NCBI GenBank assembly: GCA_900552365.1
Contig: URZP01000001.1
Location: 1-57,013, forward strand
Direction of reading: 5' to 3'
DNA from: an uncultured Coriobacteriaceae bacterium
Lineage (GTDB): Bacteria > Actinomycetota > Coriobacteriia > Coriobacteriales > Eggerthellaceae
Length of the DNA: 57,013 bases
Positions 20,506 through 45,565 of this stretch are shown here, piece after piece. Below the pieces are notes generated by a model that was given only the letters and a program-made list of their open reading frames with translations, was not told the DNA's origin and ran no database searches. Positions within the stretch are counted from its first letter, which is position 1. Each line of letters opens with the position of its first letter. A program made the translations under genes and the position numbers.

Positions 20506-20939
20506 TTCGAGCCCTTCTTCCTTAGAATCGTCGCTGGCTATTTTTCCTGGTAGCTGGCGACAATTTCTTTCAGGTACTCCTGATAGGCAACCTGAACGGA
20601 TTTCGGCGACTTCAGCCATGTTCGGTCCCTTCAGGTTGGCTTGATCTTTCGCTGAACCATTCTAAGCGTTGTCGGGTGTGCGCGCCGTCGGTCTTTCGCG
20701 AGGCGATCTGTGCCTGCCTTTCGCGTGGCGTTTTGCCCAACGAGGTTGTGCGGTCGTCGCTGCCGTGGAGCTATTTTGGGTGATGATCTGTGCCTTTTGA
20801 GCTACAGATGGCAAACAGCTCGGTAGCATCGCGAAATGCCTGTAAAATATAAGGTTGCATACACTCTGAGCCGCATGGGACGTTCGCGTTTCGGCTTGCT
20901 TCCATCGGTTTGTTTCGAGTGAGTTCGAGAGGAAACGAT

Positions 20940-23900
20940 ATGACGAACAACCAAGCCGCTCCGCTGCGAATCGGCATCGACGTCGGTTCGACCACGGTCA
21001 AACTTGCGATCTTGGATCAAGACAACACGGTTCTGTATTCCGTTTACCAACGTCACCACTCTGACGTGCGCGCCACGGTCGCCGAGGTTCTTGAGAAGGC
21101 CGCCGAGGAATTCGGCGATGCCCCCATGACCATTGCCATCACGGGCTCGGGCGGCTTGCTTCTGGCCAAGTGGCTTGGCGTCGAATTCGTCCAGGAAGTC
21201 ATCGCGTCGAAAACCGCGGTTGAGGCCTTCATCCCCGAAACCGACGTTGCCATCGAGCTTGGCGGCGAGGACGCGAAGATCATTTATTTCGATCAATCCA
21301 TCGAGCAGCGCATGAACGGTCAGTGCGCCGGCGGTACAGGCGCGTTCATCGATCAGATGGCCACCCTTCTGAACACCGATGCCGGCGGCCTGAACGAAAT
21401 GGCCAAGAAGCACACCACCATTTACCCCATCGCATCGCGCTGTGGCGTGTTCGCGAAAACCGACGTTCAGCCGCTGCTGAACGAAGGCGCCAACAGGGAC
21501 GACATCGCTGCGTCTATTTTCCAGGCCGTCGTCACGCAGACCATTTCCGGCTTGGCCTGCGGCAGGCCCATTCGCGGCCATGTGGCTTTCTTGGGCGGCC
21601 CGCTGCAGTACTTGTCCGAGCTGCGCGAGCGCTTTTACATCACGCTCGGCTTGGACGAAGAGCACATCATTTTGCCCGAGAACGCCCACCTGTTCGTGGC
21701 CAGCGGCTGTGCGGTTGCGGGTGCCGAGTCTATTCTGAAAAAGGCAAGCGACGCAGCTGAAGGTGCCCAGCCCAAGGTCGAGACGCTTTCCGCATTGGTC
21801 GAGCGCCTACATGGTCTGGGCAACATCCAGGGCTCCGAGGTCACGCGTTTGGCCCCGCTGTTCAAGGATGAGGCCGACTATCAGGAATTCAAGCAGCGTC
21901 ACGACCGCGAGCGCGTGCGTCGCGGCGACCTGGCAACCTACGAGGGCACGGCGTTTTTGGGCATCGACGCAGGCTCCACCACCTTCAAGGCCGCGCTTAT
22001 CGGCGAGGATGGCCAGATTCTGTGGACCCATTACGTCAGCAACAAGGGCGACGTTCTTGGTTGCGCTAAGGATGCGCTCGCCAAGCTGTACGCCGACCTG
22101 CCTAAAGACCCCGACACCGGCAGGCCGCTGGTTCGCATCGGCCATTCCACGGTAACAGGCTACGGCGAGGCTTTGCTGCTGCAGGCCTTGCGTGTTGATT
22201 CCGGCGAAATCGAGACCGTCGCGCATTTGCGCGGCGCGCGTGAAATGGTACCTGACGTCGAGTTCATTCTGGACATTGGCGGCCAGGACATGAAGTGCCT
22301 GCGCGTCAAAGACGGCGTTATCGACCACATCATGTTGAACGAAGCCTGCTCGTCGGGCTGCGGCAGCTTCATCGAAAGTTTCGCAAGTGGCCTGAACCTT
22401 GAGGTTGCCGACTTCGCAGAAACCGCCAATGCGGCGGAAAATCCCGTTGACCTGGGCAGTCGCTGCACTGTATTCATGAACAGCCGCGTCAAGCAGGCTC
22501 AGAAGGAAGGTGCCACGGTTGGCGACATCGCCGCCGGCCTGGCCATTTCCGTCATCAAGAACGCGCTGTTCAAGGTTATCAAGATCCGCGACCCGCATGA
22601 CGTTGGCAAGCATGTCATCGTGCAGGGCGGCACGTTCCTGAACGACTCGGTCCTTCGCGCCTTCGAACAGCTCGCCGGTGTGAATGCCGTGCGCCCCGAC
22701 ATCGCCGGCAACATGGGCGCGTATGGCGCGGCCCTTTTGGCGCGCGACCGTTTCCACGAGTCCGTCACCCGCAATGCTCGCGAGTACGCGGCCCGCGGCG
22801 AATCGGCCCCGGCAGTTGCATCCACGCTTCTTTCCGTTGACGAGCTTGCTGCGCTTAATCCCACGCATCGCACCACGCGCTGCAAGGGCTGCTCGAACAG
22901 CTGCCTGCTTACCGTCAACGACTTCGGCGTGGACGAGGAAACTGGCCGTCATCGTCGTTTCATCACCGGCAATCGCTGCGAACGCGGTGCCGGTAATGCG
23001 CTGGACAAGAAGAACGAGGTCCCGAACTTGTTCAAGTACAAGTCCGAGCGCTTGTTCGACTACTACACGCCGCTCGAGCCCGATCAGGCTACGCGCGGCA
23101 CGGTTGGCATGCCCCGCGCTCTGAACATGTACGAGAACTATCCGTTCTGGTTCACCTTCTTCACCAAGCTGGGCTTCAGGGTTGTTCTGTCTGACCAATC
23201 CACCAAGAAGGTGTTCGAGTCGGGCATCGAGTCCATGCCTTCCGAAAGCGTGTGCTACCCGGCCAAGATGTCGCATGGTCACGTTATGAATCTGCTGGCC
23301 AAGCATCCCGATTTCATCTGGATGCCCTGCAGCAAGTGGGAGCGCCAAGAGGACGAAGGCGCCGGCAACCACTTCAACTGCCCTATTGTTGCCAGCTACC
23401 CCGAGGCGTTGCGCCTGAACATCGACGAGCTGCGTACATCTGATGTGGCCTTCTTGTCGCCGTGGCTGCCCTACGACAAGCGCGATTACCTGAAGAAGCG
23501 CCTGTTCGTCGAGCTGTGCGAGAATTTCGGCAACGTTGTTGGCAAGAATGGCAGCCTGCCCACCAAGCGCGAGATCGACGCCGCCGTCGACGCCGCATGG
23601 GAAGAGGACGCGCGCTTCAAAGCCGACATCCGCGCCAAGGGCGAGGAGACGCTTGCGTGGATGGAGAAAACCAACACGCACGGCATCGTGTTGGCTGGCC
23701 GTCCCTACCACAACGACCCCGAGATCAACCACGCCATCCCCGAGCTGCTTACCAGCTTCGGCTTGGCTGTGCTTACCGAAGATTCCATCGCTCACCTGGG
23801 CACGCTCGAGCGCCCCATTCGCTTGGTTGACCAGTGGATGTTCCATACGCGCCTGTACGCCGCCGCCAAGGTGGCCACGCAGCGTCGCGACCTCGACCTT

Positions 23901-25682
23901 ATCCAGCTGAACAGCTTCGGCTGCGGCCTTGATGCCCTGACCACCGATCAGGTGCAGGAGATCCTCGAGGCTTCGGGCAAGATCTACACCGTTCTGAAGA
24001 TCGACGAGGTTTCCAACTTGGGCGCCGCTCGTATCCGTGTGCGCAGCTTGCTTGCCGCGCTTCGCGATCAGCAAGAGAAGGAAGCCGAGGCGATTCTCGA
24101 GGCCAACACCGGCTGTCCTGCCGCGCAGGCCGAAGAACTTGTCGCCAAGTTCGAGGCGCGCCGCGAGGCATCGGACGGCGCCGACGTTGCCACCGCTGCT
24201 GCCGAGATCGCCAGCAAGATGCGTGCGGCTGGCGCTGCCGAGTCCGAGGTGAACGCCCTGAAGAAGGTTGCGGCTGACCTTGAGGACGTGAATCGCGACG
24301 CCGAGTCCACCCAGTTCCCGCGCGCTGAGTTCACCAAGGAAATGAAGGATGCGGGCTACACCATCCTCGCCCCGCAGATGGCCCCGTACCACTTCGAGTT
24401 GCTGGCGCCCGTGTTCAAGGCAAACGGCTACAACATGGAACTTCTGCCGTCGGTTGACCATGGTGCGGTTGATGCCGGCTTGAAGTACGTCAACAATGAT
24501 ATCTGCTATCCGTCCATTCTGGTTACCGGCCAGATCATGGAGGCGGTCACCAGCGGTCGATACGACACGCACAAGCTGGCCGTCATCATCACGCAGACGG
24601 GCGGCGGCTGTCGTGCCACCAACTACATCTCGCTGATCCGCAAGGCTTTGAAGGCCGCGAACCTCGAGTACATCCCCGTTATCTCGCTGGCCCTGCAGGG
24701 CGGCTTGGACGAGAGCAACTCGGGCTTCAAGGTTACGCTGCCCATGCTCAAGCAGGCAATTTACGCGTTCTCGTACGGCGACCTTCTTATGACCGCGCTG
24801 TACCGCACGCGCCCCTACGAGGTCGAGCCTGGCAGTGCTCAGCGCTTGTTCGATTACTGGATGGCAACTTGCAAGCAGCAGCTGTACAGCGGCGTGAAGC
24901 AGGGCGTTTTCGCGAAGACCGTTCAAAAGATCGTCGAGGACTTCGACACCTTGCCGCTTCAGGGCGAGGGCACTAAACCCCGTGTTGGCGTTGTCGGTGA
25001 GATTTTGGTCAAGTTCCATCCTACGGCGAACAACCAGGTGGTTGACGTCATCGAGGCCGAGGGCTGCGAAGCCGTTGTCCCCGGCTTGATCGAGTTCTTC
25101 TTGTTTGGCATTGCGGGCCGCATTTTCCAGAAGGACCCGCTGGGCCGCTCGTCCAAGGGCGCGTTCGGCGCGAAGATGATCCTTGGCCTGCTAAAGACCA
25201 TGCGCAAGCCGGTTATCGACGCCATGGGGAAGTCCACGCGCTTCGAGGCCCCAACCGACATCTTCACGCTGGCCGGTTATGGCGAGGAGATCCTGAGCTT
25301 GTGCAACTCCATGGGTGAGGGTTGGCTGCTTACCGCCGAGATGGTTGAGCTGGTGCGTCATGGCGCTCCGAACGTCGTGTGCGCTCAACCGTTCGCGTGC
25401 CTGCCCAACCACGTGGTTGGCAGGGCCGTCATCAAGGAGATCCGCCGCCGTTACCCCATGGCCAACATCGTGGCCGTCGACTACGATCCTGGCTCGTCCG
25501 AAGTCAATCAGCTCAACCGCATCAAACTGATGATTTCGGTTGCTAAGGCTAACTTGGCCGAGAAGGAGGCCGAGGCGAAGGGTCAGCGCGATGCGCGCCT
25601 GGATGCTGCTGGCCCGCATGCGGTCCAGCAGGACATGGGCGATTTCGAGCTGGATGTTGAAACCGAAAAGGTTGAGAAGTAA
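20940..25682 (+). CDS. Giant fusion of two BcrA/BadF/HgdC-type activase ATPase domains, a CoA-enzyme-activase-associated domain and a 2-hydroxyacyl-CoA dehydratase (HgdB/D-like) module
   Basis: Two acetate/sugar-kinase-fold starts ('[14 protein letters not shown]', '[14 protein letters not shown]') are followed by the Cys cluster 'CKGCSNSC...GNRCERG'. Next come '[14 protein letters not shown]' and '[10 protein letters not shown]', an Ala/Glu-rich linker, and '[14 protein letters not shown]' and 'GGGCRATNY'. I prefer the ATG at 20940 (preceded by GAGAGGA) over 20910. Confidence 0.8.
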
Positions 25683-34905: not shown

Positions 34906-34981
34906 GGGGATGTAGCTCAGCTGGGAGAGCATTACGTTCGCAACGTAGGGGTCGTGGGTTCGAATCCCATCATCTCCACCA
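34906..34981 (+). tRNA. tRNA-Ala (anticodon CGC)
   Basis: A 76-nt cloverleaf was folded by hand: acceptor GGGGATG/CATCTCC with the G3:U70 alanine identity pair, D arm GCTC/GAGC, anticodon loop TTCGCAA, T arm GTGGG-TTCGAAT-CCCAT, and an encoded CCA. Confidence 0.95.
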
Positions 34982-35144: not shown

Positions 35145-36362
35145 GTGAAAGGTCGAATCGCGCATATGAATGAGGGCGCTTCTTCGAAATCGTCGAACGG
35201 GCTGGTTTGGCTTCTTGCCGTGTGCTGCTTCATCTTGGGCAGCGCTCAGCAGTATCTGTTGGGCGTGCCTGACCAAATCGCTTCCGATACCGGCGTCTCG
35301 CTTTCGGCGATCAGCCTTCTTATGACGGCGTATGCACTGGTCAATGCCTTACTTGCGCCAGTTGCCATCATGGTTACGGCGAAGTGGTCGCAGCGCAGGC
35401 AGCTTATTGGGGGCATGGTACTTATTGTTGCCGGTTTGGCTTTGATGGGTTTGACGAACAACTTCGGCCTGCTCATCTTCTCGCGCGGCCTTGTCGGCTT
35501 GGGTAACGGCGTCTTTGTGGTAACCGCTTACGCGCTTGCGCAGTCGCTGGCGGCTCCCGGCAAGCAGGCGTCCGCTATGGCGGATGTTGCACTGGGCTTC
35601 AGCGCCTCGTCGGTTTTGGCCATGCCCATCGCTCGCGCCCTTCGCGACATCATCAGCTGGCATTCTGCCTATTTGGCGCTCGCTGTGCTCGGCGTGGTGG
35701 GCATCGCGGCCGTCATGCGTTTGATTCCCGAGATCAAATCCGCCAACGCCTCGTCTTCGGCCAAGGATCGCTTGACGCCGCTTGCCAACAAGGCGGTCGT
35801 ATCGGCGCTGGCCGGATCGCTGTTCGTCTTCATGGCCTTCAGCGTGTTCTACACCTACATCACCCCGTTTATCGACACGGCCATGCCCGAGCTGGGTTCG
35901 GGCACCAGCGTTGTCCTGTTCGGCCTGGGAATCATGAGCCTGATCGGTACGAAGCTTTGCGGCGTCATCGCCGACCGCTTCAGCCCGCGCACGGCTATCG
36001 AGTTCTGCCTGGTCTCCATCGCGCTTATGCTTGCGGCGACATTCGCGCTTGAAGGCGCCGGCTGCGGCGTTATTCCGCCGTTGCTGCTGTGGATGGGCGC
36101 GGCGTGGATGTTCGTCCCTGTCCAAAACGTGGTGCTAACCGACCTTGCCGGCGAGGGTTCGGCCATGGCTCTTTCGCTTTCGAATTCCTTCATGCAGATG
36201 GGCAACGCGCTTGGTGCGCCCATCGCAGGTATGGTCATTGCGGTTGCTCCCGTTATGGTCTTGCCGTTGGTTGCCGTTCCCTTCATTTTAGGCGCGTTCG
36301 GCTTTGAGGAGTTCGCGTTTCGAAAGGGACAGTTGCCCCGTCGTTCGGGGAAGAGGGCGTAA
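35145..36362 (+). CDS. MFS transporter (12 TM), paralogue 1
   Basis: It has a hydrophobic 12-TM pattern, and GGGAG lies 7 nt before the GTG. It is closely related to the protein at 37778-38983. Confidence 0.8.
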   Translation: MKGRIAHMNEGASSKSSNGLVWLLAVCCFILGSAQQYLLGVPDQIASDTGVSLSAISLLMTAYALVNALLAPVAIMVTAKWSQRRQLIGGMVLIVAGLALMGLTNNFGLLIFSRGLVGLGNGVFVVTAYALAQSLAAPGKQASAMADVALGFSASSVLAMPIARALRDIISWHSAYLALAVLGVVGIAAVMRLIPEIKSANASSSAKDRLTPLANKAVVSALAGSLFVFMAFSVFYTYITPFIDTAMPELGSGTSVVLFGLGIMSLIGTKLCGVIADRFSPRTAIEFCLVSIALMLAATFALEGAGCGVIPPLLLWMGAAWMFVPVQNVVLTDLAGEGSAMALSLSNSFMQMGNALGAPIAGMVIAVAPVMVLPLVAVPFILGAFGFEEFAFRKGQLPRRSGKRA

Positions 36363-36427: not shown

Positions 36428-37681
36428 TTACAGCGCGAACGGGTCATCGTCCTGCTCGGCATCGCGTTTCAGTTGAAGCAGCTGCGCCACCATGGCGGTG
36501 TCGCCTTCGTCGGTTGCCTGGTCAATCACCTTGGTGAACGTTTCGGCGTCCAACACTCCCGTATCGACGAGTTTCTTGAAGCCGTCGGCGTTCCCGCGAT
36601 CGCGGAATAGACCGCAAACGGTCCAGATCTTGTTGCGCAGAAAAGCCGTGAACTGCTCGCGCATGGTCGGGCTGAGGAAGATGGGGTCGGCTAGGCGGTT
36701 GACCATTGTTCCGTAGCGTGCAAAGTGGTCGTTCTGGTTGAGCGTGGCGCGGTCCATCTCGGCCATGATGAGCGTGGGGTCGATGATGTCCGTTTTGAAC
36801 ATGCGGTTCACGGCGTTCAGGCCCGCCTCGTTGCGCGGCGGTTCGATCTTAAGCCGATCGTGTCCGTCTACCGCGGGCGAAAGCCCGATGACGATGCGGC
36901 GCGGAGGCTCGCTGAGCGCAAGTGCCGACGGTCCCAGCTTTTTCACGCCGCCGTGCACGACCAGTTCTTCCAACGTGGACGCGTTCGCGAACGCCATGGG
37001 GCCGATCTCAGTTACTTCCTTGGGGATGGCCACGTTGGTGGCGGGGCCGATGTACAACACAGCCACGTCGCCGCCGTCGGCCGCCGCCTTGCGTGCGCAC
37101 AGAACGTCGGATGCCAGGTAGAAGCTGTCGTTTTCGGGGTCGATCGAGATCTCGTACAGGTTGAGCGATCGTCCGCTGGTCCACATTTCCGATTTGCCGC
37201 CGCCGTCGGCCACCAACGCGCACGACCCTATGTGGTTGCAAGCCGCGGGAATGTGAAGCGACTCGATGGACGATCCGAAGAACGCCCAGTCCTCGATGCG
37301 CTCAAGGGAATCGGGAAGAACCTCGGTTGTCAGGTTCTCGCAGGCGCTGAAAGCGGAATCGCCGATCCAGCGAACACCCTGGGGAATGGCGATCATCTCG
37401 AGGGCCGTGTTGCCGGCGAAGGCCAGGTTGCCTATGCCGATGGTTCCGTCCATCGCGCGGTAGGCGCGCGCTTGGCTTTCCGATGCGTCCTCAAGCACCA
37501 GCCCGTCGGGTGTTTTCCGGTAGACCACGCCATCGGCGTCGACGATGGTTTCGGGCGCGTTGTTCGCGTGCGCCTTGCTGGTAGGGACTGGCGCGTCGCT
37601 CGCTTCGCCCCCTTCGGCCGCCGCGTCTTGTTGTACGGCTGCATCTTGTGTGGCAAGTTTGGTTTCGGGGTGGTCGGCCAT
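36428..37681 (-). CDS. BspA-type leucine-rich-repeat protein with a helical C-terminal domain and no signal peptide
   Basis: It carries repeats of the 'I(P/G)xxVxxIGxxAFxxCxxL' type ('IPQGVRWIGDSAFSACENL', 'LPDSLERIEDWAFFGSSI', 'IPKEVTEIGPMAFANASTL'). The N-terminus is acidic and Ala-rich. Confidence 0.65.
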   Translation of the reverse strand: MADHPETKLATQDAAVQQDAAAEGGEASDAPVPTSKAHANNAPETIVDADGVVYRKTPDGLVLEDASESQARAYRAMDGTIGIGNLAFAGNTALEMIAIPQGVRWIGDSAFSACENLTTEVLPDSLERIEDWAFFGSSIESLHIPAACNHIGSCALVADGGGKSEMWTSGRSLNLYEISIDPENDSFYLASDVLCARKAAADGGDVAVLYIGPATNVAIPKEVTEIGPMAFANASTLEELVVHGGVKKLGPSALALSEPPRRIVIGLSPAVDGHDRLKIEPPRNEAGLNAVNRMFKTDIIDPTLIMAEMDRATLNQNDHFARYGTMVNRLADPIFLSPTMREQFTAFLRNKIWTVCGLFRDRGNADGFKKLVDTGVLDAETFTKVIDQATDEGDTAMVAQLLQLKRDAEQDDDPFAL

Positions 37682-37777: not shown

Positions 37778-38983
37778 ATGGGCGAAGCGCGCGACGAAGC
37801 TAAGGGCATGGGATCTGAAAAGGGCTCTTCGAGGTTGATCTGGCTTTTGGCTCTTTGCTGCTTTGTTCTAGGTTGCTCTCAGCAGTATATCTTGGGTGTG
37901 CCCGACCAGGTTGCCGCAACGCTTGACATCTCGCTTGGTCAGGTTAGCCTTCTTATGACGGCGTTCGGCCTGATCAACGCCTTCCTGGCGCCCGTCATCG
38001 TTATGCTGACTGCGCGCTATTCGGCTCGCGTCCAGCTTCTGATTGGCTTGGCGTGCATGGCAGTCGGCCTTCTTATGACCGCAGTTACCAGTATCTTTCC
38101 GCTTCAGATGGTTGCGCGCGGCATCATGGGAATGGGCAACGGCGCGTTCGTGGCCACGGCGTATTCCGCTTCGCAGAAGCTTGCTGCGCCCGGAAAGCAG
38201 GCAAGCGCCATGGCCAACGTGGCCCTGGGCTTCAGCGCGGCGTCGGTTTTGGCCATGCCCATTGCCCGCGCATTGCGCGAGAGCGTTAACTGGCAGAACG
38301 CGTACCTGGTCATCGCTATCTTCGCGGTGGCGGCCTTCCTTGTCATCGCTAAGGTGTTCCCGAACACGGCTCCCGACACCGAGGACCTTACCGTCAAACA
38401 GCGCCTTGCTCCGCTGGCGAACAAGGCGGTGATGTTCGCCTATGCTGGCACGACTTTCATGGTTTGCGCTTTCGCCTGCTTCTACACGTACGTCACGCCG
38501 TTCCTGGATGCGTTCGCGCCGCAATTCAACGCGTATCTGAGCGTCGTCTTGCTGGTTGTCGGCCTGATGAGCATGCTGGGCACAAAGCTTCACGGTTGGC
38601 TTGCCGACCGTGTTGGCCTTCGCATTGCGATTATGACCAGCTTCATCTGCTCGACGTTGTCGCTGCTTTTGATCTTCTTCTGCGAGGGTGCGGGCTTGGG
38701 CCTTGTTGGCGCCCTTTGCCTGTATCAGCTGTTCGCATGGGCGTTTCTGCCTGTTCAGAACACGCTTTTGGCGTCCATTGCGGGCGATGGCGCGCGTATG
38801 GCCATTGCTCTTTCGAGCTCGTTCTTGCAGCTGGGCAATGCCATCGGTGCGGCCATTGCCGGCATCGCCGTTTCGTCGGCCCCGTTCGGTGCGCTTCCGC
38901 TGATCGCTTTCCCGTTCGCGCTGCTCGCCATTGCGGCCGAAGTCACGGCGCTTACGTTTGCTGCTAAGAAGATGGCGAGGTAA
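37778..38983 (+). CDS. MFS transporter (12 TM), paralogue 2
   Basis: 'LIWLLALCCFVLGCSQQYILGVPDQVA' here compares with 'LVWLLAVCCFILGSAQQYLLGVPDQIA' in paralogue 1. The similarity continues along the whole length. Confidence 0.8.
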   Translation: MGEARDEAKGMGSEKGSSRLIWLLALCCFVLGCSQQYILGVPDQVAATLDISLGQVSLLMTAFGLINAFLAPVIVMLTARYSARVQLLIGLACMAVGLLMTAVTSIFPLQMVARGIMGMGNGAFVATAYSASQKLAAPGKQASAMANVALGFSAASVLAMPIARALRESVNWQNAYLVIAIFAVAAFLVIAKVFPNTAPDTEDLTVKQRLAPLANKAVMFAYAGTTFMVCAFACFYTYVTPFLDAFAPQFNAYLSVVLLVVGLMSMLGTKLHGWLADRVGLRIAIMTSFICSTLSLLLIFFCEGAGLGLVGALCLYQLFAWAFLPVQNTLLASIAGDGARMAIALSSSFLQLGNAIGAAIAGIAVSSAPFGALPLIAFPFALLAIAAEVTALTFAAKKMAR

Positions 38984-39154
38984 CTCGGCTTTCCCTATAC
39001 GTTCGGGTTTGTCGTGCTTGCTGCTTTATGATTCGGGTTTTGATCTGCAGATGGTTTGAATCGGTCGAAGCCCGCTTGCTTCTCGATTAATCTACCCCCT
39101 ATGGGTTAATATGCCGGCGTGCGCCACGCGCGACGTTGGCTGGGAGGTAGCTAC

Positions 39155-39829
39155 ATGAATACGAAAACCAAGCGCAGAATGATGGCGGTCACCGGCGTCG
39201 TTGTCATCGCTCTTGTTGTCGTGCTTGCCGTTGTGGGCGGAAGCTCTGCGGCGCGCAACGTCTCCGTTGCCGAAGCTGCTTCGGGTTCGGTTCACGACGC
39301 CAAGGTCAAGGTTTCCGGCAAGGTCGTGCCCAACTCGTTCTCCACCGACAACAACGTGCTTGTCTTCTCGATTTACGATTCCGAGGTCGACCCCGATGCA
39401 CAGACCGCTTTGAAGGTTCGTTACGACGGTGGCGTTTCCTCCACGTTCGGCAACGACGTCGAGGCTATCTGCACCGGAAAGGTTGGTTCCGACGGCGTGC
39501 TGCAGTGCACCGAGTTGGTCACGAAGTGCCCCTCGAAGTACGAGAACGCGTCCGAGGCCCTTTCGGTTGAGAAACTGCTTTCGTACGGTGCCGATGTCTA
39601 CGACAAGCCGGTCAAGATCGTGGGAACGGTTGCAGCGGGTTCGATCGCCTCTGCGACTGCTGATCAGCGCTTCGTTGTGCAAGATTCCGCCACGCCCGAC
39701 GTTCAGCTTCCCGTTTCGTTCGAGGGTGGCTTGCCTGACAACCTTTCCGAGGGATCGTCCGTCGTTCTTACCGGTGCGCTCTCTTCTGAGGGCAAGTTCG
39801 TTGCGACCGAGGTCGCTCTGGAGGGATAA
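39155..39829 (+). CDS. ccmE: Cytochrome c maturation heme chaperone CcmE, variant CxxxY type, with a second CcmE-like OB domain
   Basis: A TM anchor is followed by 'VKVSGKVVPNSF...VFSIYDSE...VRYDGGVSSTFGNDVEAICTGKV...ELVTKCPSKYE', which parallels E. coli 'LRVGGMVMPGS...FTIYDAEG...[23 protein letters not shown]...EVLAKHDENY'. Cys125 (nt 39527-39529) replaces the heme-binding His. Residues from about 140 to 224 repeat the OB pattern without the motif. Confidence 0.8.
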   Translation: MNTKTKRRMMAVTGVVVIALVVVLAVVGGSSAARNVSVAEAASGSVHDAKVKVSGKVVPNSFSTDNNVLVFSIYDSEVDPDAQTALKVRYDGGVSSTFGNDVEAICTGKVGSDGVLQCTELVTKCPSKYENASEALSVEKLLSYGADVYDKPVKIVGTVAAGSIASATADQRFVVQDSATPDVQLPVSFEGGLPDNLSEGSSVVLTGALSSEGKFVATEVALEG

Positions 39830-39834
39830 CCAGC

Positions 39835-42078
39835 ATGTCCATGTTCGGCTACGGATGTTTGATCGTTTCTCTTGTTGCCGCAATCGCGGCAACGGTTCTG
39901 CTTGCAGCGGGCCAGGTTCTTTCTGCCCGATCCGGTAAGGCGGGCACGGCGGAAGGGCAGGGGGAAAGCGACCGCGCTGCCGCGCTTTCGAGGTTTGGTC
40001 GCGCGCTGTCCGTGGTCGTTGCGGCGGCCTTGTTCGTTTGCTGCGCTATTCTGGTTTACTGTTTCTTCGCGGGTGACTACTCCATTCTGTACGTGCTGCA
40101 GGAGCGCTCGCTTTCCACCAGCAACCTTGCTTGGCTCTACAAGTTGTCGGGCCTGTGGGCGGGTCGTGCGGGTTCGTTGATGTTCTGGGCCTTCATCATC
40201 TCGCTGTTCGTGGTTGCGCTGTGCGTTCGCGCGCGCAAGGACGCTTCGACGATGGACAACATGGCCATCCTGGTCATGAACGTGGTCCTGCTTGCGTTCT
40301 TGGGCGTTCTTGTGTTCTCGGAAAGCAACATGCCCTTTACGGCAACCCCGGCAAGCTACTTCAATTCCGATGGCTCTCTTACCGCTGTCGCTTCGATGAG
40401 CGGCATGAACTCGCTGCTTGAGCATTGGGCCATGGCCATTCACCCGCCTGTTCTGTTCGTGGGCTACGCTGGCATGGCAGTGCCGTTCGCGTACGCCATC
40501 GCCACGCTCATCGTTGGTGACTCGTCGGCGAAGTGGGTCGAGCGTTCCTCTCGCTTCACGCTGTTCAGCTGGCTTTTCCTGGGCGCGGGCATCGGCCTTG
40601 GCGCCGTGTGGGCTTACGTTGTGCTGGGCTGGGGCGGCTACTGGGGCTGGGACCCGGTCGAGAACGCCAGCTTGCTTTCGTGGTTGGTGGGCGTTGCCTT
40701 AATCCACACGTTCACGGTTTACCGCCAGCGCGGTGCGTTCAAGCGTTGGGCTGTTATGTGCGCCTGCCTTGCGTTCGCGTTCGTCATCGTGGGCACGTTC
40801 ATTTCCCGTTCGGGCATCGTTCAGTCCGTTCATGCATTCGAGGGCGATCCCGTTTCGCTCGCGCTGTTCGGCTCGCTGATCGCGCTTGCGGTTCTGGCTG
40901 GCATCGTTGGCTTGGCAATTCGTTGGAAGCAGTTCGACGCCGAGACCGAGGGTGGCGACGACGTCGAGAACATGGTCTCCAAGGACGCTGCTTACTACTT
41001 CAACAACGTGATCATGATCGTATTCACGCTTCTGCTTACCTACATGACCGTTTCGTCCGCGTTGCCGTCGTGGCTTCCGTTCGGCGGTCAGTCGCTGGGT
41101 ACCACGTCGTATGATTCCATCGCGCGCCCGCTGGGCATCGTGTACCTGTTCATTTTGGCGGTGTGCCCCCTGCTTGCCTGGGGAAAGACCGACCCGAAGA
41201 AGTTCTTCAAGCAGGCGAAGGTTCCAGGCATCTGCGCTTTGGCTCTGTTCGCGGTTTTGCTGGCGTATTACGTGACCACGTTGATGCCTGCGTACTTCGA
41301 CATGCTTTCTCTTGACAACAGCAAGTCCGCCGCACTGGCCGAGGCGGGCCCCTCGTGGTACTACGTCGGTCTTTCCGTTGTCGGCTTGTTCGTGGCCAGC
41401 CTGCTGTTCTTCAACGCGCTGTTCATGATCGGTCGCGGCATTTCGCGCTATGCGAAGGTGCACAAGACGAACGTGCTCTCTTCGGCTATTGGCCTGTTCC
41501 GCAATCATGCGGCAACGTACGGCGGCGCATTGGCCCATGTCAGCATGGCGATCATCTTGGTCGGCCTTATCGGCTCGTCCATGTACGTTACCGAGAAGAC
41601 GGGCTATCTGCCTTACGATTCCCAGACGGACACCTCGTCTGCCGAGTTCACCATTCAGGATTACACGCTTAAGATGGCAGGCACCGCCGACTCCGCAAAC
41701 CAGGCGACTTACACCGTCTCGTCGCAGCTTGATTTCGATGTGTACCGCGGCGGCGAGTACGTCGGCCAGGTTCATCCGTCTGTTCAGCAAAACGTGATGA
41801 CCCAGCAGCAGAAGCTCGACGCTGGCGTTATCAGCTTCGCCGACGAGGATCTCTTCGTGGTTTACCGCGGCTTGAGCGCCACGGGTTCGCTGTCGCTTGA
41901 CGTTCGTGTGAACCCGTTGATCTCGCTTGTGTGGTCTGGCTTCGGTTTGTTGATGGTTGCCATCGTGCTTGCGCTGGCAGGTCGTCGTGGTTCGGGCGAG
42001 CTGCTTGCTACGTCTGGCGCCGCGGGTTCCGACGTGAAGCAGGGCGAATCTGCCAATGCGAAAGCTTGCGAGGCGTAA
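39835..42078 (+). CDS. ccmF: Cytochrome c-type biogenesis protein CcmF (heme lyase component)
   Basis: The 747-aa polytopic protein carries the WWD motif 'WGGYWGWDPVEN' (about nt 40629-40664). Confidence 0.9.
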   Translation: MSMFGYGCLIVSLVAAIAATVLLAAGQVLSARSGKAGTAEGQGESDRAAALSRFGRALSVVVAAALFVCCAILVYCFFAGDYSILYVLQERSLSTSNLAWLYKLSGLWAGRAGSLMFWAFIISLFVVALCVRARKDASTMDNMAILVMNVVLLAFLGVLVFSESNMPFTATPASYFNSDGSLTAVASMSGMNSLLEHWAMAIHPPVLFVGYAGMAVPFAYAIATLIVGDSSAKWVERSSRFTLFSWLFLGAGIGLGAVWAYVVLGWGGYWGWDPVENASLLSWLVGVALIHTFTVYRQRGAFKRWAVMCACLAFAFVIVGTFISRSGIVQSVHAFEGDPVSLALFGSLIALAVLAGIVGLAIRWKQFDAETEGGDDVENMVSKDAAYYFNNVIMIVFTLLLTYMTVSSALPSWLPFGGQSLGTTSYDSIARPLGIVYLFILAVCPLLAWGKTDPKKFFKQAKVPGICALALFAVLLAYYVTTLMPAYFDMLSLDNSKSAALAEAGPSWYYVGLSVVGLFVASLLFFNALFMIGRGISRYAKVHKTNVLSSAIGLFRNHAATYGGALAHVSMAIILVGLIGSSMYVTEKTGYLPYDSQTDTSSAEFTIQDYTLKMAGTADSANQATYTVSSQLDFDVYRGGEYVGQVHPSVQQNVMTQQQKLDAGVISFADEDLFVVYRGLSATGSLSLDVRVNPLISLVWSGFGLLMVAIVLALAGRRGSGELLATSGAAGSDVKQGESANAKACEA

Positions 42079-42808
42079 GTTGGATTCCGTTCAGGGCAAA
42101 CCCGCAATCGAAGTAAAGCACCTGAGCAAGGTGTTCGGCACGCGTCGCGCTGTTGACGACGTCAGCTTCGTTTTGCCACAAGGTGCTTTCTTGTCGATCT
42201 TCGGCCCCAACGGTGCCGGCAAAACCACGCTCTTGCGCGTGTTATCCACGCTTGCGCGCGCTTCGTCTGGCGAGGCGCGCGTCATGGGCGTCAACGTGAA
42301 GGAAGAGCCCGACGCCGCGCGCAACTTCATCGGTTTGATCTCGCATCAGCCCATGCTGTACCCCGACCTCACGGCCGAGGAGAATCTGCTGTTGTATGCC
42401 GAGCTGTACGGCGTTGCCGATCCGCAAAAGCGCGTGAACGAATTGCTTGATGTGGTGGGCCTTTCGCATCGCAGGCTCGACCCGGTGCGCACGTTCTCGA
42501 AGGGAATGACGCAGCGCGTGGCCATCGCCCGCGCTATCGTCCACGACCCGGCGGTCGTGTTTCTTGACGAGCCGTATTCCGGGCTTGACCCGCATGCGGT
42601 CGACATCTTCGATAGTCTGATCGCCGATATCCGCGACGAGCACACGTTCGTCATGGTCAGTCATGATTTACGGAAGGGTTTCGCCATGTGCTCGCATGCG
42701 TTGGTTCTGGCTCGCGGCCGCGTGGTTTCCTTCGACGATAAAAACGCGTTGGATTTCAGTGAGTTCTCGCAGCTGTATCGCGAGACTGTTGGAATGGGGG
42801 TTGCCTGA
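42056..42808 (+). CDS. ccmA: Heme exporter ATP-binding protein CcmA
   Basis: ABC motifs 'GPNGAGKTT', 'FSKGMTQR' and 'VFLDEPYSGLD' are present. The assignment rests on context between ccmF and ccmB. The start (ATG 42056 or TTG 42080) is uncertain. Confidence 0.75.
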   Translation: MRKLARRKLDSVQGKPAIEVKHLSKVFGTRRAVDDVSFVLPQGAFLSIFGPNGAGKTTLLRVLSTLARASSGEARVMGVNVKEEPDAARNFIGLISHQPMLYPDLTAEENLLLYAELYGVADPQKRVNELLDVVGLSHRRLDPVRTFSKGMTQRVAIARAIVHDPAVVFLDEPYSGLDPHAVDIFDSLIADIRDEHTFVMVSHDLRKGFAMCSHALVLARGRVVSFDDKNALDFSEFSQLYRETVGMGVA

Positions 42809-43515
42809 TGTTGCAGACGCCTTCAACTTTCCAACAGTACAAGACGCTTCTTCGCAAGGATCTCCAACAGGAATTCCGCACGCACGACATGGTCGTGTCC
42901 ATGGGGCTGTTCGCGCTGTTGGTCATCATCGTGTACGGCGCTGCGCTTGCTCAGACCGCGGCAAGCCTGGACATCGTGCGCATGTCGGGTGGTCTTATCT
43001 GGGCGCTCATCGTGTTCACGTCGCTGTTGGGCTTGAACCGCTCGTTCTCGCACGAGAAGGAGCAAGGCTGCCTTGAGGGCATCTTGCTGGTTCCGCTTGA
43101 TCGTTCGGTTGTTTACCTGGCGAAGGCCACATCTAACTTCCTGTTCCTGCTTGCGGTCGAGATCATCGCCGTGCCGCTGTTCGTGTTTTTCTTCATGACC
43201 ACCGAGACGTTCTCGGATTCGTTCTTGTTCTTAGTGTTTCCGCTGCTTTTGGGCACCGTGGGAATCGCGGGCATCGGCACCATGCTTTCGACCATCACCG
43301 TCAACACGCGTGGCAAGGACGTCATGCTGGCGGTGCTGTTCATCCCGCTGATCTACCCGCTGCTGTACGCATGCGTGACCGCAACGACGGCGGCCATCTG
43401 CGGTGGCGAGTTTTGGATGGATTCGTATACGATGCCGCTTGTCATGGCGGCAGGATATGATGTGATCATGTTGGCCCTTTGTTGGGTTTTGTACAACTTC
43501 ATCATTTCGGCTTAG
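42808..43515 (+). CDS. ccmB: Heme exporter membrane protein CcmB
   Basis: It is a six-TM protein with a CcmB-like N-terminus ('LLRKDLQQEFRTHD') and 'FSHEKEQGCLEG'. Its ATG shares one nt with the ccmA TGA. Confidence 0.8.
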   Translation: MLQTPSTFQQYKTLLRKDLQQEFRTHDMVVSMGLFALLVIIVYGAALAQTAASLDIVRMSGGLIWALIVFTSLLGLNRSFSHEKEQGCLEGILLVPLDRSVVYLAKATSNFLFLLAVEIIAVPLFVFFFMTTETFSDSFLFLVFPLLLGTVGIAGIGTMLSTITVNTRGKDVMLAVLFIPLIYPLLYACVTATTAAICGGEFWMDSYTMPLVMAAGYDVIMLALCWVLYNFIISA

Positions 43516-43603
43516 CTTGCGGTTTAAGACGCGAGAGCCGCGAAGACCGATCTTTAAATTGATCGGAAGTAACTTGCAATACCGAACCTAGGTTAGGAGC
43601 AGG

Positions 43604-44368
43604 ATGGCGAACAATAAGAACGTGAAGATCCCCGAAGCGGGGCAGTGGCCCGACAAGCTGCTTGTTCCGGCGCTGATCGCGGGCCTTGTGCTTACCACCG
43701 TGGGCTTTCTGCTGGCGTTTTTGTGGGTAGGGCCGGTCAACGGTGCCGCGGTGAACGGGTTCGCCCTTATCGGCGGTCGCATGGTCACCAACATCCAGCT
43801 GCTTTCGCAGAAGATCTTCTACTTCCACATGCCGGTGGCTATCACCTCGTTCGTGCTGATGGGCTTCGCGGGGTATTACGCTGTCCGCTTTCTTATGACG
43901 AAGAACCAGCGTTTCGACACCTGCTCGCGCGTTGCCCTTGAGGGGTCGCTGCTGTTTATCATCATGACTATGTTCACGGGCGACCTGTGGACCCGTTTCG
44001 AATGGGGCGTGTGGTGGACGTGGGACCCTAGGCTTACCACGTACCTTATCCTGATGCTCATCGTCATTGCATGCTTCGTGCTGCGCAACTCCATTGACGA
44101 GCCCGAGCGTCGCGCGACGTATTGCTCGGTTATCACCATCATCGCGTTCGTCGATGTGCCGATTTGCATGATGATCACGCGTATGATCCCGTCGAGCCTT
44201 CATCCCGTGGTGACTCGCGAGGGCGGAATGACGGGCGACATGGCCATCACGCTCGTGCTTATCGTCGTCGGTATGCTGCTTATCGGGTTCGCGTTGTACC
44301 GCACGCGCTTCCGCCAGCTTCGCGTTGCCGAGCGCATCCAATCCATCACCGACCAGCTTGAAGACTAA
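43604..44368 (+). CDS. ccmC: Heme exporter/heme-handling protein CcmC
   Basis: The WWD motif 'WGVWWTWDPRLTT' is present, and the RBS AGGAGC precedes the ATG. Confidence 0.9.
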   Translation: MANNKNVKIPEAGQWPDKLLVPALIAGLVLTTVGFLLAFLWVGPVNGAAVNGFALIGGRMVTNIQLLSQKIFYFHMPVAITSFVLMGFAGYYAVRFLMTKNQRFDTCSRVALEGSLLFIIMTMFTGDLWTRFEWGVWWTWDPRLTTYLILMLIVIACFVLRNSIDEPERRATYCSVITIIAFVDVPICMMITRMIPSSLHPVVTREGGMTGDMAITLVLIVVGMLLIGFALYRTRFRQLRVAERIQSITDQLED

Positions 44369-44379
44369 GGGGAACGAAT

Positions 44380-44580
44380 ATGGATCCTATTTTGCAAGAG
44401 ATTTACAGCACCGTCGTTCCGTCTGCGCCGTTTTTGATTGCGGCCTACGCGCTTCTGTGGGCGGCGCTTTTGGTGTACGTCGTCGTCATGCAGCGCGGCC
44501 TTAAGAACTCAGAGAAGCGATTGGATCTGCTTGAAACCGAGTTGGCTTCAAAGAAGCCAAGCGACAGCCTCCAGGGTTAA
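44380..44580 (+). CDS. ccmD: CcmD-like small single-TM protein
   Basis: The 66-aa product has one TM segment ('FLIAAYALLWAALLVYVVVM') followed by a basic segment. It sits directly after ccmC. Confidence 0.6.
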   Translation: MDPILQEIYSTVVPSAPFLIAAYALLWAALLVYVVVMQRGLKNSEKRLDLLETELASKKPSDSLQG

Positions 44581-44752
44581 AGCCGAGCTGGCTTCGAAGA
44601 GCTCAATTTCCGGCCGCTAAATTCGCGCTGAAACCGAAAACCAAGCTCAAGTAACGGTAGCGGAGCCGTTTGCCCGTGCGGCGAGCGGCTCTGCTTGTCC
44701 GTGGTATCCTGAGACAGTTGCTTTGACATCCAACGAACCGAAAGGGAATCGT

Positions 44753-45565
44753 ATGAAGGCACTTATTCCTGCAGCCGGTTTGGGCACGCGTTTCCTGCCC
44801 GTCACCAAGGCTCAGCCGAAGGAAATGCTCCTGGTCGTTGACAGACCGGTCATCCAATACGTCGTCGAAGAGGGCCTTGCCTCTGCCGCCGACGAAGTCG
44901 TCATCATCAACAGCCACTCCAAGAAGGCCATCGAGGATCACTTCACCCCCGATCCCGAGCTGGTTGCCACGCTGCGCGCTCGCGGCAAGGACGCTTATGC
45001 CGACGAAGTCGAGCGCGTTGGCAACATGAACGTTAGCTACGTGTACCAGGAAGAGGCCCTTGGTCTTGGCCATGCTATCCATTGCGCCGCTGAAAAGACC
45101 GGCGACGAGCCCTTCTACGTGCTGCTGGGCGACGTCATCGTCCCCGACAACAAGATGCTTCCGCGCATGCAGGAAGTTTCTGACGCGCACGGTGGTGCCA
45201 GCGTCATCGCCGTCATGCCCGTTCCCGACGATCAGGTTCACCGTTTCGGCATCATCGCCGGCTCCGAGGTTTCCGAGAACGTTTGGAAGGTCGACTCCCT
45301 GGTTGAGAAGCCTGCTTTGGAAGATGCTCCCTCCAACCTGGCCGTCTTCGGCCGCTACCTGCTGTCTCCGCGCGTCATGGAGCTTCTGGCTACCGTGAAG
45401 CCCGGCGTTGGCGGCGAGATCCAGCTTACCGACGCTCTTGATGAGGTTCTGAAGGAAGAAGAGATGTATGCGCTCGTCATCGATCCTTCCGACGGCTTTG
45501 ACACCGGCACCGTTGCCAGCTGGCTCGAGACGAACAACATCCTTTTCCAGCGTAAGAATTCGTAG
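44753..45565 (+). CDS. galU: UTP-glucose-1-phosphate uridylyltransferase
   Basis: 'KALIPAAGLGTRFLPVTKAQPKEML' and 'VEKP' are present. I prefer the ATG at 44753, after AAAGGGA. Confidence 0.9.
   Translation: MKALIPAAGLGTRFLPVTKAQPKEMLLVVDRPVIQYVVEEGLASAADEVVIINSHSKKAIEDHFTPDPELVATLRARGKDAYADEVERVGNMNVSYVYQEEALGLGHAIHCAAEKTGDEPFYVLLGDVIVPDNKMLPRMQEVSDAHGGASVIAVMPVPDDQVHRFGIIAGSEVSENVWKVDSLVEKPALEDAPSNLAVFGRYLLSPRVMELLATVKPGVGGEIQLTDALDEVLKEEEMYALVIDPSDGFDTGTVASWLETNNILFQRKNS

Follow-up and report, generated by a model that had tools for sequence, protein, structure and literature searches.

How does a haem chaperone work when the residue expected to hold the haem lies in the middle of the protein and is followed by another folded domain? 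This question is raised by a ccmE gene of an uncultured Coriobacteriaceae bacterium (Eggerthellaceae), found in a 57,013-nucleotide (nt) stretch of DNA (contig URZP01000001.1, positions 1 to 57,013 of the forward strand; the window in what follows) as an open reading frame (ORF) of 224 amino acids (aa) at 39155-39829 on the + strand, with its stop codon at 39827-39829. The haem residue of CcmE has been described as lying on a flexible C-terminal tail (PMC10457321), and models of System I cytochrome c maturation (Ccm) have this tail reach the WWD site of CcmC and then the lateral gate of CcmF (PMC10457321, PMC6204919). A sequence-only reading of the window had proposed that a Cys replaces the haem-binding His in this protein, and that an extension of about 95 aa forms a second CcmE-type OB domain without an H/CxxxY tail. 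The best explanation, to which we give a probability of about 0.8, is that the gene belongs to a streamlined operon for System I and encodes its haem chaperone, CcmE, as a tandem-OB protein in which the haem-attachment motif sits in the linker between two barrels.

Both halves of the polypeptide were recognised as CcmE by profile searches. The Pfam family CcmE (PF03100, gathering score 24.6 bits) scored 111.9 bits on the whole protein with two matches, and when the halves were scanned separately, residues 1-133 reached 60.3 bits (E=2.4e-16, profile positions 6-98 of 99) and residues 134-224 reached 56 bits (E=5.2e-15, profile positions 6-89 of 99), each well above the gathering score. Aligned to each other with BLASTP, the two halves were 30% identical (E=4e-8), which is far beyond chance. 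A phmmer search against the PDB matched residues 152-221, and thus domain 2, to the CcmE structures 1j6q, 1sr3, 8ce8_E and 2kct. The NCBIfam CcmE equivalog models matched below their full-length cut-offs (64.5 versus 126 bits), which is consistent with a divergent CcmE subfamily.

Structure prediction led to the same picture. The full-length AlphaFold model (predicted local distance difference test score, pLDDT, 81.5) comprised a helix at residues 3-29, barrel 1 strands at 50-124, a helix at 138-148 and barrel 2 strands at 152-222, and Foldseek searches with this model matched chains of CcmE, OB folds of the RPA type and proteins with tandem OB domains. The first helix coincides with a hydrophobic run and would form an N-terminal membrane anchor (residues ~3-29; 39161-39241, +), the equivalent of the single transmembrane helix N2-S32 of E. 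coli CcmE (PMC10457321). The anchor is followed by OB barrel 1 (residues 35-124; 39257-39526, +), which is supported by the Pfam match at residues 37-131 and the modelled strands and carries an invariant F98-G99 pair, and, beyond the haem-attachment motif, by a predicted linker and N-terminal helix of the second unit (residues 131-150; 39545-39604, +), which repeat a 'VSVAEAA' stretch found before barrel 1. The C-terminal part is OB barrel 2 (residues 135-224; 39557-39826, +). When domain 2 was modelled alone with AlphaFold2, it reached a pLDDT of 93.9 and a predicted template-modelling score (pTM) of 0.81, and its top Foldseek match in the PDB was 8ce8_E, E. coli CcmE in the CcmABCDE complex (TM-score 0.69, root-mean-square deviation 2.5 Angstrom). 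Further CcmE matches followed in the order D. vulgaris 2kct (TM-score 0.67-0.69), 1lm0, 1sr3 and 1j6q, with RPA-type OB folds interspersed. The protein thus has the single N-terminal anchor and predicted extracytoplasmic OB barrel of a CcmE, residues 140-224 are CcmE-like by profile as well as by predicted structure, and, taking sequence and models together, the polypeptide carries two CcmE-type OB barrels, the second of which is CcmE-derived and lacks the haem motif.

The motif itself was located by aligning the protein, with MAFFT, to single-domain relatives and E. coli CcmE; in this alignment, C125 (codon TGC, 39527-39529) fell in the column of H130 and Y129 (codon TAC, 39539-39541) in that of Y134. 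An attachment residue with a Tyr four positions on, directly after the last strand of a barrel, is therefore present as C125-P-S-K-Y129-E130 (39527-39544, +); it is internal (125-130 of 224) and followed by a folded barrel instead of lying on a free C-terminal tail. A pLDDT below 50 at residues 127-132 predicts that this stretch is flexible or disordered. At the other end of the protein, 'ATEVALEG' of domain 2 aligns on E. coli 'AKEVLAKH', which puts Gly224, the last residue before the stop codon, in the His130 column. In our conservation set of 112 sequences, to which all CcmE conservation values given here refer, CPSKYE was 100% conserved. The same held across species: a GTDB scan with one genome per species gave 546 confirmed loci, and in the best 80 of these, each protein had exactly one CPSKY, at position ~99-151 (245 in one over-extended call, L052), and no tail motif. 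A search for another His ligand was negative, as His is entirely lacking from many homologues and domain 2 has no conserved column of H, M or C; in many basal homologues, the motif Cys is the single Cys of the whole protein. The ORF and codon positions, the exchange of His for Cys, the second OB domain and its missing tail were accordingly all borne out as the sequence-only reading had them, and no conserved His took the place of the proposed ligand.

The tandem layout was by no means peculiar to this genome. The identical 224-aa product was encoded on eight independent contigs, including the public metagenome-assembled genome (MAG) GCA_900762835.1 at NCBI, whose ccmE call is identical to the ORF at 39155-39829. 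Searching 5.8 billion proteins retrieved 1456 relatives, the best 120 of which were all 213-252 aa long and 57-98% identical, with Berryella, Arabiibacter, Gordonibacter and Adlercreutzia as the named genera, and when 1.84 billion cluster representatives were searched with a profile, ~60 full-length tandem clusters emerged (at 50% identity; 209-238 aa). Below these in the ranking came single-domain CxxxY CcmEs of 130-160 aa, the closest named ones being from Ca. Aquicultor, other Actinomycetota MAGs and Kyrpidia. The best 80 GTDB loci all spanned essentially the full tandem (anchor, barrel, CPSKYE and second barrel) in an ORF of 202-252 aa, with the exception of the over-extended L052 call (354 aa), and belonged to Anaerosomatales, Collinsella, Slackia, Senegalimassilia, Adlercreutzia, Hugonella and many unnamed Coriobacteriia. 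They included the isolates Collinsella intestinalis DSM 13280, Slackia equolifaciens DSM 24851, Slackia piriformis YIT 12062 and Hugonella massiliensis AT8. The tandem layout is hence the standard CcmE of the class Coriobacteriia, which comprises gut and environmental Gram-positives. Four tandem-ccmE contigs (L053, L072, L073 and L075) are filed under Akkermansia muciniphila, a Methanomethylophilaceae archaeon, Anaerovoracaceae and Butyrivibrio 'cleanbin' assemblies; these taxon labels probably reflect bin contamination rather than horizontal transfer. Three unusual family members were also seen: P0186 (193 aa) has a normal barrel 2 but begins with an unrelated Ig/Cna-B-like segment where the motif and barrel 1 should be, and may be an assembly chimera, while P0127 (305 aa) and P0137 (244 aa) carry Ala/Gly-rich low-complexity inserts within the barrels, with an additional Ala/Pro-rich C-terminal tail in P0127.

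A metagenome-type assembly, the source of the window, raises the question of an artefactual fusion of adjacent ccmE genes by mis-assembly, frameshift or read-through, but given this distribution such a fusion has a negligible probability, and nothing was found in its favour. Indeed, it is refuted by the identical product on eight contigs and by a single ORF in 80 species genomes, isolates included, and the G+C content of the ORF by codon position is gene-like throughout (0.61/0.44/0.71) and resembles that of the adjacent genes. An antisense ORF at 39092-39892 was rejected, as its codon-position G+C content has the pattern of a high-GC shadow ORF. For the start of ccmE we favoured the ATG at 39155, which has a Shine-Dalgarno-like GGGAGG (39142-39147, +) 7 nt upstream as read from the sequence; the N-terminus MN(T/A)K(T/M)K(R/K)R, common to all homologues, speaks against the longer alternative, a GTG at 39119, which is unlikely. 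A scan of 38850-44800 for promoters and terminators yielded matches only at the level expected by chance.

Both barrels are under purifying selection. In barrel 1, F98, G99, G55, S61, G108 and T123 were conserved at 99-100%, and in barrel 2, R172 and G207 at 100%, with G157 and F215 also conserved. R172 (codon 39668-39670, +) is the sole 100%-conserved polar residue of barrel 2, and the R-F pair at this position also occurs in some single-domain CxxxY CcmEs (P0261, P0234). For barrel 1, the median pairwise ratio of nonsynonymous to synonymous substitution rates (dN/dS, Nei-Gojobori, 151 locus pairs) was 0.27, and for barrel 2 it was 0.29, with ~0.02-0.3 in the closest pairs; barrel 2 is thus kept by selection.

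By homology, the core function of the protein as a CcmE is secure. Whereas the analysis demonstrates the architecture, the fold, the conservation, the operon context and the purifying selection, we infer the covalent Cys-haem chemistry, the order of haem hand-over and the role of barrel 2, and the following mechanism is proposed on that footing. As in homologous systems, CcmABCD would make haem available on the outer side of the membrane, and the haem would be attached covalently to Cys125 of CPSKYE, as in the Cys-type CcmEs of Desulfovibrio and archaea, with Tyr129 as the likely axial ligand. The membrane-tethered holo-CcmE would then pass its haem to CcmF without CcmH. The position of the motif, in a flexible linker of ~12 residues between the barrels instead of on a free tail, departs from all characterised CcmEs.

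Comparison with these characterised systems places the operon on known ground. A CxxxY CcmE without CcmH defines a variant of System I that has been published for Desulfovibrio and archaea (PMC9084895 and PMC3884852, citing Allen 2006 and Goddard 2010), and the window's cluster fits this variant, as had been suggested from its sequence, since it consists of ccmE, F, A, B, C and D only, with no ccmH. The CcmE of Desulfovibrio desulfuricans and D. vulgaris (2KCT; Goddard 2010 and Aramini 2012, as cited in PMC3884852) likewise combines CxxxY with an OB barrel, and its system has kept CcmD and lacks CcmH and CcmG. However, this CcmE has one barrel with the motif on an unstructured C-terminal tail, whereas the tandem motif is internal and a second barrel comes after it. 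In Methanosarcina acetivorans (PMC9084895), the Cys (C120) of CXXXY is needed for holo-CcmE, and CcmABCEF operates without CcmH/I; archaeal systems differ in having no CcmD, a CcmF split over two genes and a single-domain CcmE, whereas the window encodes a CcmD-like protein and a single CcmF of 747 aa. As judged by its gene content, the operon is thus a bacterial sub-type of variant System I, with CcmD present and CcmF unsplit. E. coli CcmE (H130/Y134; 1SR3 and 8CE8 chain E) shares with the tandem protein the transmembrane anchor, the OB barrel, the axial Tyr four residues on and the partners CcmC and CcmF, but uses His instead of Cys, carries it on a free C-terminal tail (PMC10457321), needs CcmH and has one barrel.

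The closest non-tandem proteins by profile score were the CcmEs of Ca. Aquicultor (Actinomycetota) and Kyrpidia (Bacillota), which share TKCPSKYE and a barrel-1-type FGxD loop with the tandem but are 138-153 aa long and end soon after the motif, without a second barrel. Extra barrels were also found in a Chloroflexota MAG (GCA_040754215.1, L084:556-1473; P0298/P0228), whose CcmE of 302-305 aa has three Pfam CcmE stretches and CASKY on its C-terminal tail. There, unlike in the Coriobacteriia, the barrel with the motif comes last and the additional ones precede it, and the gene heads a cluster in the order ccmE, ccmF, a zinc-ribbon protein, a CarboxypepD_reg-like protein, ccmA, ccmB, ccmC and a small ORF. 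This triple CcmE, of which two sequences were found, is an independent and rare multi-barrel layout.

A clue to the role of barrel 2 comes from the surface with which CcmE docks on its partner. In E. coli, R73, D101 and E105 of CcmE dock on D47, Q50 and R55 of CcmC, with D101 and E105 pairing with Q50 and R55 (PMC6204919). The loop D195-N-L-S-E199 of barrel 2 (39737-39751, +) aligns with E. coli D101...E105 and keeps the acidic pair of that loop: 84% of the sequences have Asp or Glu at position 195 and 93% at position 199, compared with 0% and 26% at the matching positions of barrel 1. On the CcmC side, Q69 and K70 (the latter equivalent to E. coli R55) showed no variation in 57 of 57 loci. 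These patterns hint, if weakly, that the canonical loop for docking on CcmC has been retained in barrel 2 while barrel 1 presents the motif. As our preferred reading, we tentatively propose that the work of the single canonical barrel is now divided, with barrel 1 presenting the motif and barrel 2, whose own haem residue has been lost, docking on CcmC and perhaps CcmF, a possibility that we put at worse than even odds. A more specific version, which we consider doubtful, would hold the haem loop between two OB modules that dock on different partners (for instance barrel 2 on CcmC and barrel 1 on CcmF), so that a hinge, and not a free tail that diffuses from one complex to another, passes the haem from exporter to lyase.

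Several observations weigh against the mechanism as proposed above. Covalent attachment of the haem is not certain here, because D. vulgaris CcmE has been reported to bind haem non-covalently via its Cys (PMC3884852). The single-domain CcmEs of the Ca. Aquicultor type, with their FGxD loop, presumably still dock on CcmC, such that barrel 1 may be fully competent by itself, in which case barrel 2 may have its acidic loop by mere inheritance. The full-length model had a pTM of 0.45 and leaves the mutual orientation of the barrels undefined. Finally, the absence of CcmH and CcmG applies to the window and the locus flanks and to a motif search only: a regular-expression scan for CcmH (LRCxxC) and CcmG/ResA (WCxxC) found neither in a credible ORF of the 57-kb window or of the flanks of the 80 loci (up to 8 kb per side); all matches fell in off-frame junk ORFs.

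What else might barrel 2 be for? It could act as a lid, both barrels closing over the faces of the linker-tethered haem and shielding this reactive, covalently held group on the exposed surface of a single-membrane cell. The position of the motif exactly between the barrels in a flexible stretch would suit such a role, as would the purifying selection on barrel 2 and the retention of the architecture in all 80 loci of the Coriobacteriia, a class described as Gram-positive (PMC8778435). Yet barrel 2 lacks any conserved H, M, C or Y that might serve as haem ligand, its counterpart of E. coli F103 is a variable aliphatic residue, and the single-domain CcmEs of Kyrpidia and Ca. Aquicultor, which are also Gram-positive, imply that single-membrane life needs no lid. 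Moreover, nuclear magnetic resonance (NMR) work on the E. coli protein found no haem site on the barrel core (PMC6204919), and we consider a lid unlikely. In barrel 1, the residue that corresponds to F103 is the invariant F98; an argument for a haem platform built on F103/F98 was dropped in view of the same NMR result.

A passive relic or spacer, kept for folding, stability or reach from the membrane, strikes us as rather improbable, even though most of the conserved residues of barrel 2 are the structural Gly, Phe and Val that define the CcmE fold, its mean pairwise identity is somewhat lower than that of barrel 1 (43% versus 50%), and the Chloroflexota proteins with extra OB copies suggest that such units multiply easily. 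Against this, the dN/dS of barrel 2 is as low as that of barrel 1, none of the 80 Coriobacteriia loci has lost it, and its conserved positions include the invariant R172 and the acidic pair at 195/199 (84-93%). It is improbable, in our view, that barrel 2 replaces the missing CcmH/CcmI by binding or positioning the apocytochrome or by contacting CcmF during ligation: Desulfovibrio and archaea work without CcmH and with a single-barrel CcmE (PMC9084895, PMC3884852), such that no substitute is required, and CcmH folds as a bundle of three helices and bears a redox CxxC motif (PMC3884852), whereas barrel 2 is free of Cys in many basal homologues. What speaks for this idea is that no LRCxxC protein was seen in the window or locus flanks by the regular-expression scan, that OB folds often bind extended ligands, as do the Foldseek neighbours RPA and POT1, and that CcmF is ~100 aa longer than that of T. 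thermophilus.

How barrel 2 arose was addressed with a neighbour-joining tree (200 bootstraps, 91 columns), which gave no support for monophyly of barrel 1, of barrel 2 or of both together and whose 'single-domain' set was contaminated by contig-end fragments of tandem proteins. Hidden Markov model scores placed barrel 2 nearer some single-domain CcmEs (P0261, 72 bits) than its own barrel 1 (median 42 bits). Barrel 2 may stem from an internal duplication or from the fusion of a second ccmE. As to novelty, no description of a tandem or duplicated CcmE, or of Ccm in Coriobacteriia, was found in the open-access full-text literature searched. The earlier statement that no tandem CcmE had been described stands within that literature, with the qualification that databases already label the tandem proteins 'CcmE' or 'CcmE domain-containing protein'. 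The protein is new in architecture and not in kind: a class-wide variant of a known haem chaperone.

The ccmE gene is the first of a same-strand ccmE-F-A-B-C-D operon, an order retained in nearly all complete loci among the 80 species, with two loci arranged as E-A-B-C-D-F. It is followed by ccmF (39835-42078, +), which encodes an unsplit haem lyase of 747 aa identified by Pfam Cytochrom_C_asm and CcmF_C and by NCBIfam NrfE/CcmF models, the best NCBIfam match being the NrfE subfamily below its cut-off. Comparison of the protein with T. thermophilus CcmF (6zmq) shows that the WWD segment and His residues are present, in a phmmer alignment that spans only residues 55-470. It is ~90-100 aa longer than that protein (660 aa in 6zmq) and divergent in its C-terminal half, and both features might co-vary with the tandem CcmE. 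Next come ccmA (42056-42808, +), an ATP-binding cassette (ABC) ATPase matched by ABC_tran and by TIGR01189 (120.7 bits, below the cut-off of 131.6), and ccmB (42808-43515, +; Pfam CcmB, 104.8 bits). The start of ccmA is ambiguous: the longest ORF, from 42056, overlaps the end of ccmF by 23 nt, and the public call begins at 42080, just past the ccmF stop. CcmC (43604-44368, +) aligns with its E. coli counterpart including both haem-ligand His residues (H75 corresponding to E. coli H60) and the WWD motif, in addition to the invariant Q69 and K70. The last gene (44380-44580, +) encodes a small CcmD-like membrane protein (TIGR04391 CcmD_alt_fam, 26 bits against a cut-off of 24).

Upstream of ccmE lie rsmA, veg, a tRNA-Ala gene and two major facilitator superfamily (MFS) genes flanking a BspA-type leucine-rich-repeat (LRR) gene, and a GalU-type nucleotidyltransferase gene lies downstream of the operon. 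The tRNA-Ala (anticodon CGC; 34906-34981, +), between veg and the first MFS gene, was the only hit of an Rfam scan of 34-46 kb. The paralogous MFS transporters (35145-36362, + and 37778-38983, +, the latter just 5' of the ccm operon) are very alike at their N-termini ('LIWLLALCCF.LG..QQY.LGVPDQ') and enclose the BspA-type LRR gene (36428-37681, -), an MFS-LRR-MFS arrangement that also occurs on the public contigs L081-L083. Elsewhere in the window, at 20910-25682 (+), we noted an ORF of 1590 aa that starts with a 16-letter ATPase-type motif (BadF/BcrA/HgdC-like activator). Among the candidate ORFs of the window, none was found to encode a multi-CXXCH cytochrome. By contrast, genes for multihaem cytochromes c are located ~0.2-3 kb 5' of the tandem ccmE, on the same strand, in many genomes of Eggerthellaceae, Slackia and Hugonella; those at eleven loci (L039, L043, L044, L046, L051, L057, L063, L069, L070, L076 and L077) have 3-4 CXXCH motifs and are NrfA- and NrfH/NapC-like.

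If barrel 2 turned out to be dispensable, the finding would shrink to an annotation note. If, on the other hand, the haem loop does act as a hinge between two docking modules, the Coriobacteriia would possess a mechanistically distinct, CcmH-independent form of System I, which would account for the resistance of Eggerthellaceae cytochromes c to being matured by the Ccm system of E. coli. A whole bacterial class whose motif sits in a loop closed by a second barrel constitutes a natural experiment on the assumption that CcmE needs a free tail. The Eggerthellaceae, important gut bacteria that metabolise drugs and dietary compounds, have many multihaem cytochromes, and at least one of them, E. lenta Cgr1, could not be supplied with haem in heterologous hosts, for which incompatible maturation factors have been raised as a possible cause (PMC5953540). 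The tandem CcmE may bear on this failed maturation of Eggerthella cytochromes c in heterologous hosts, and co-expression of the native ccmEFABCD operon, tandem CcmE included, would be an obvious option for such cytochromes.

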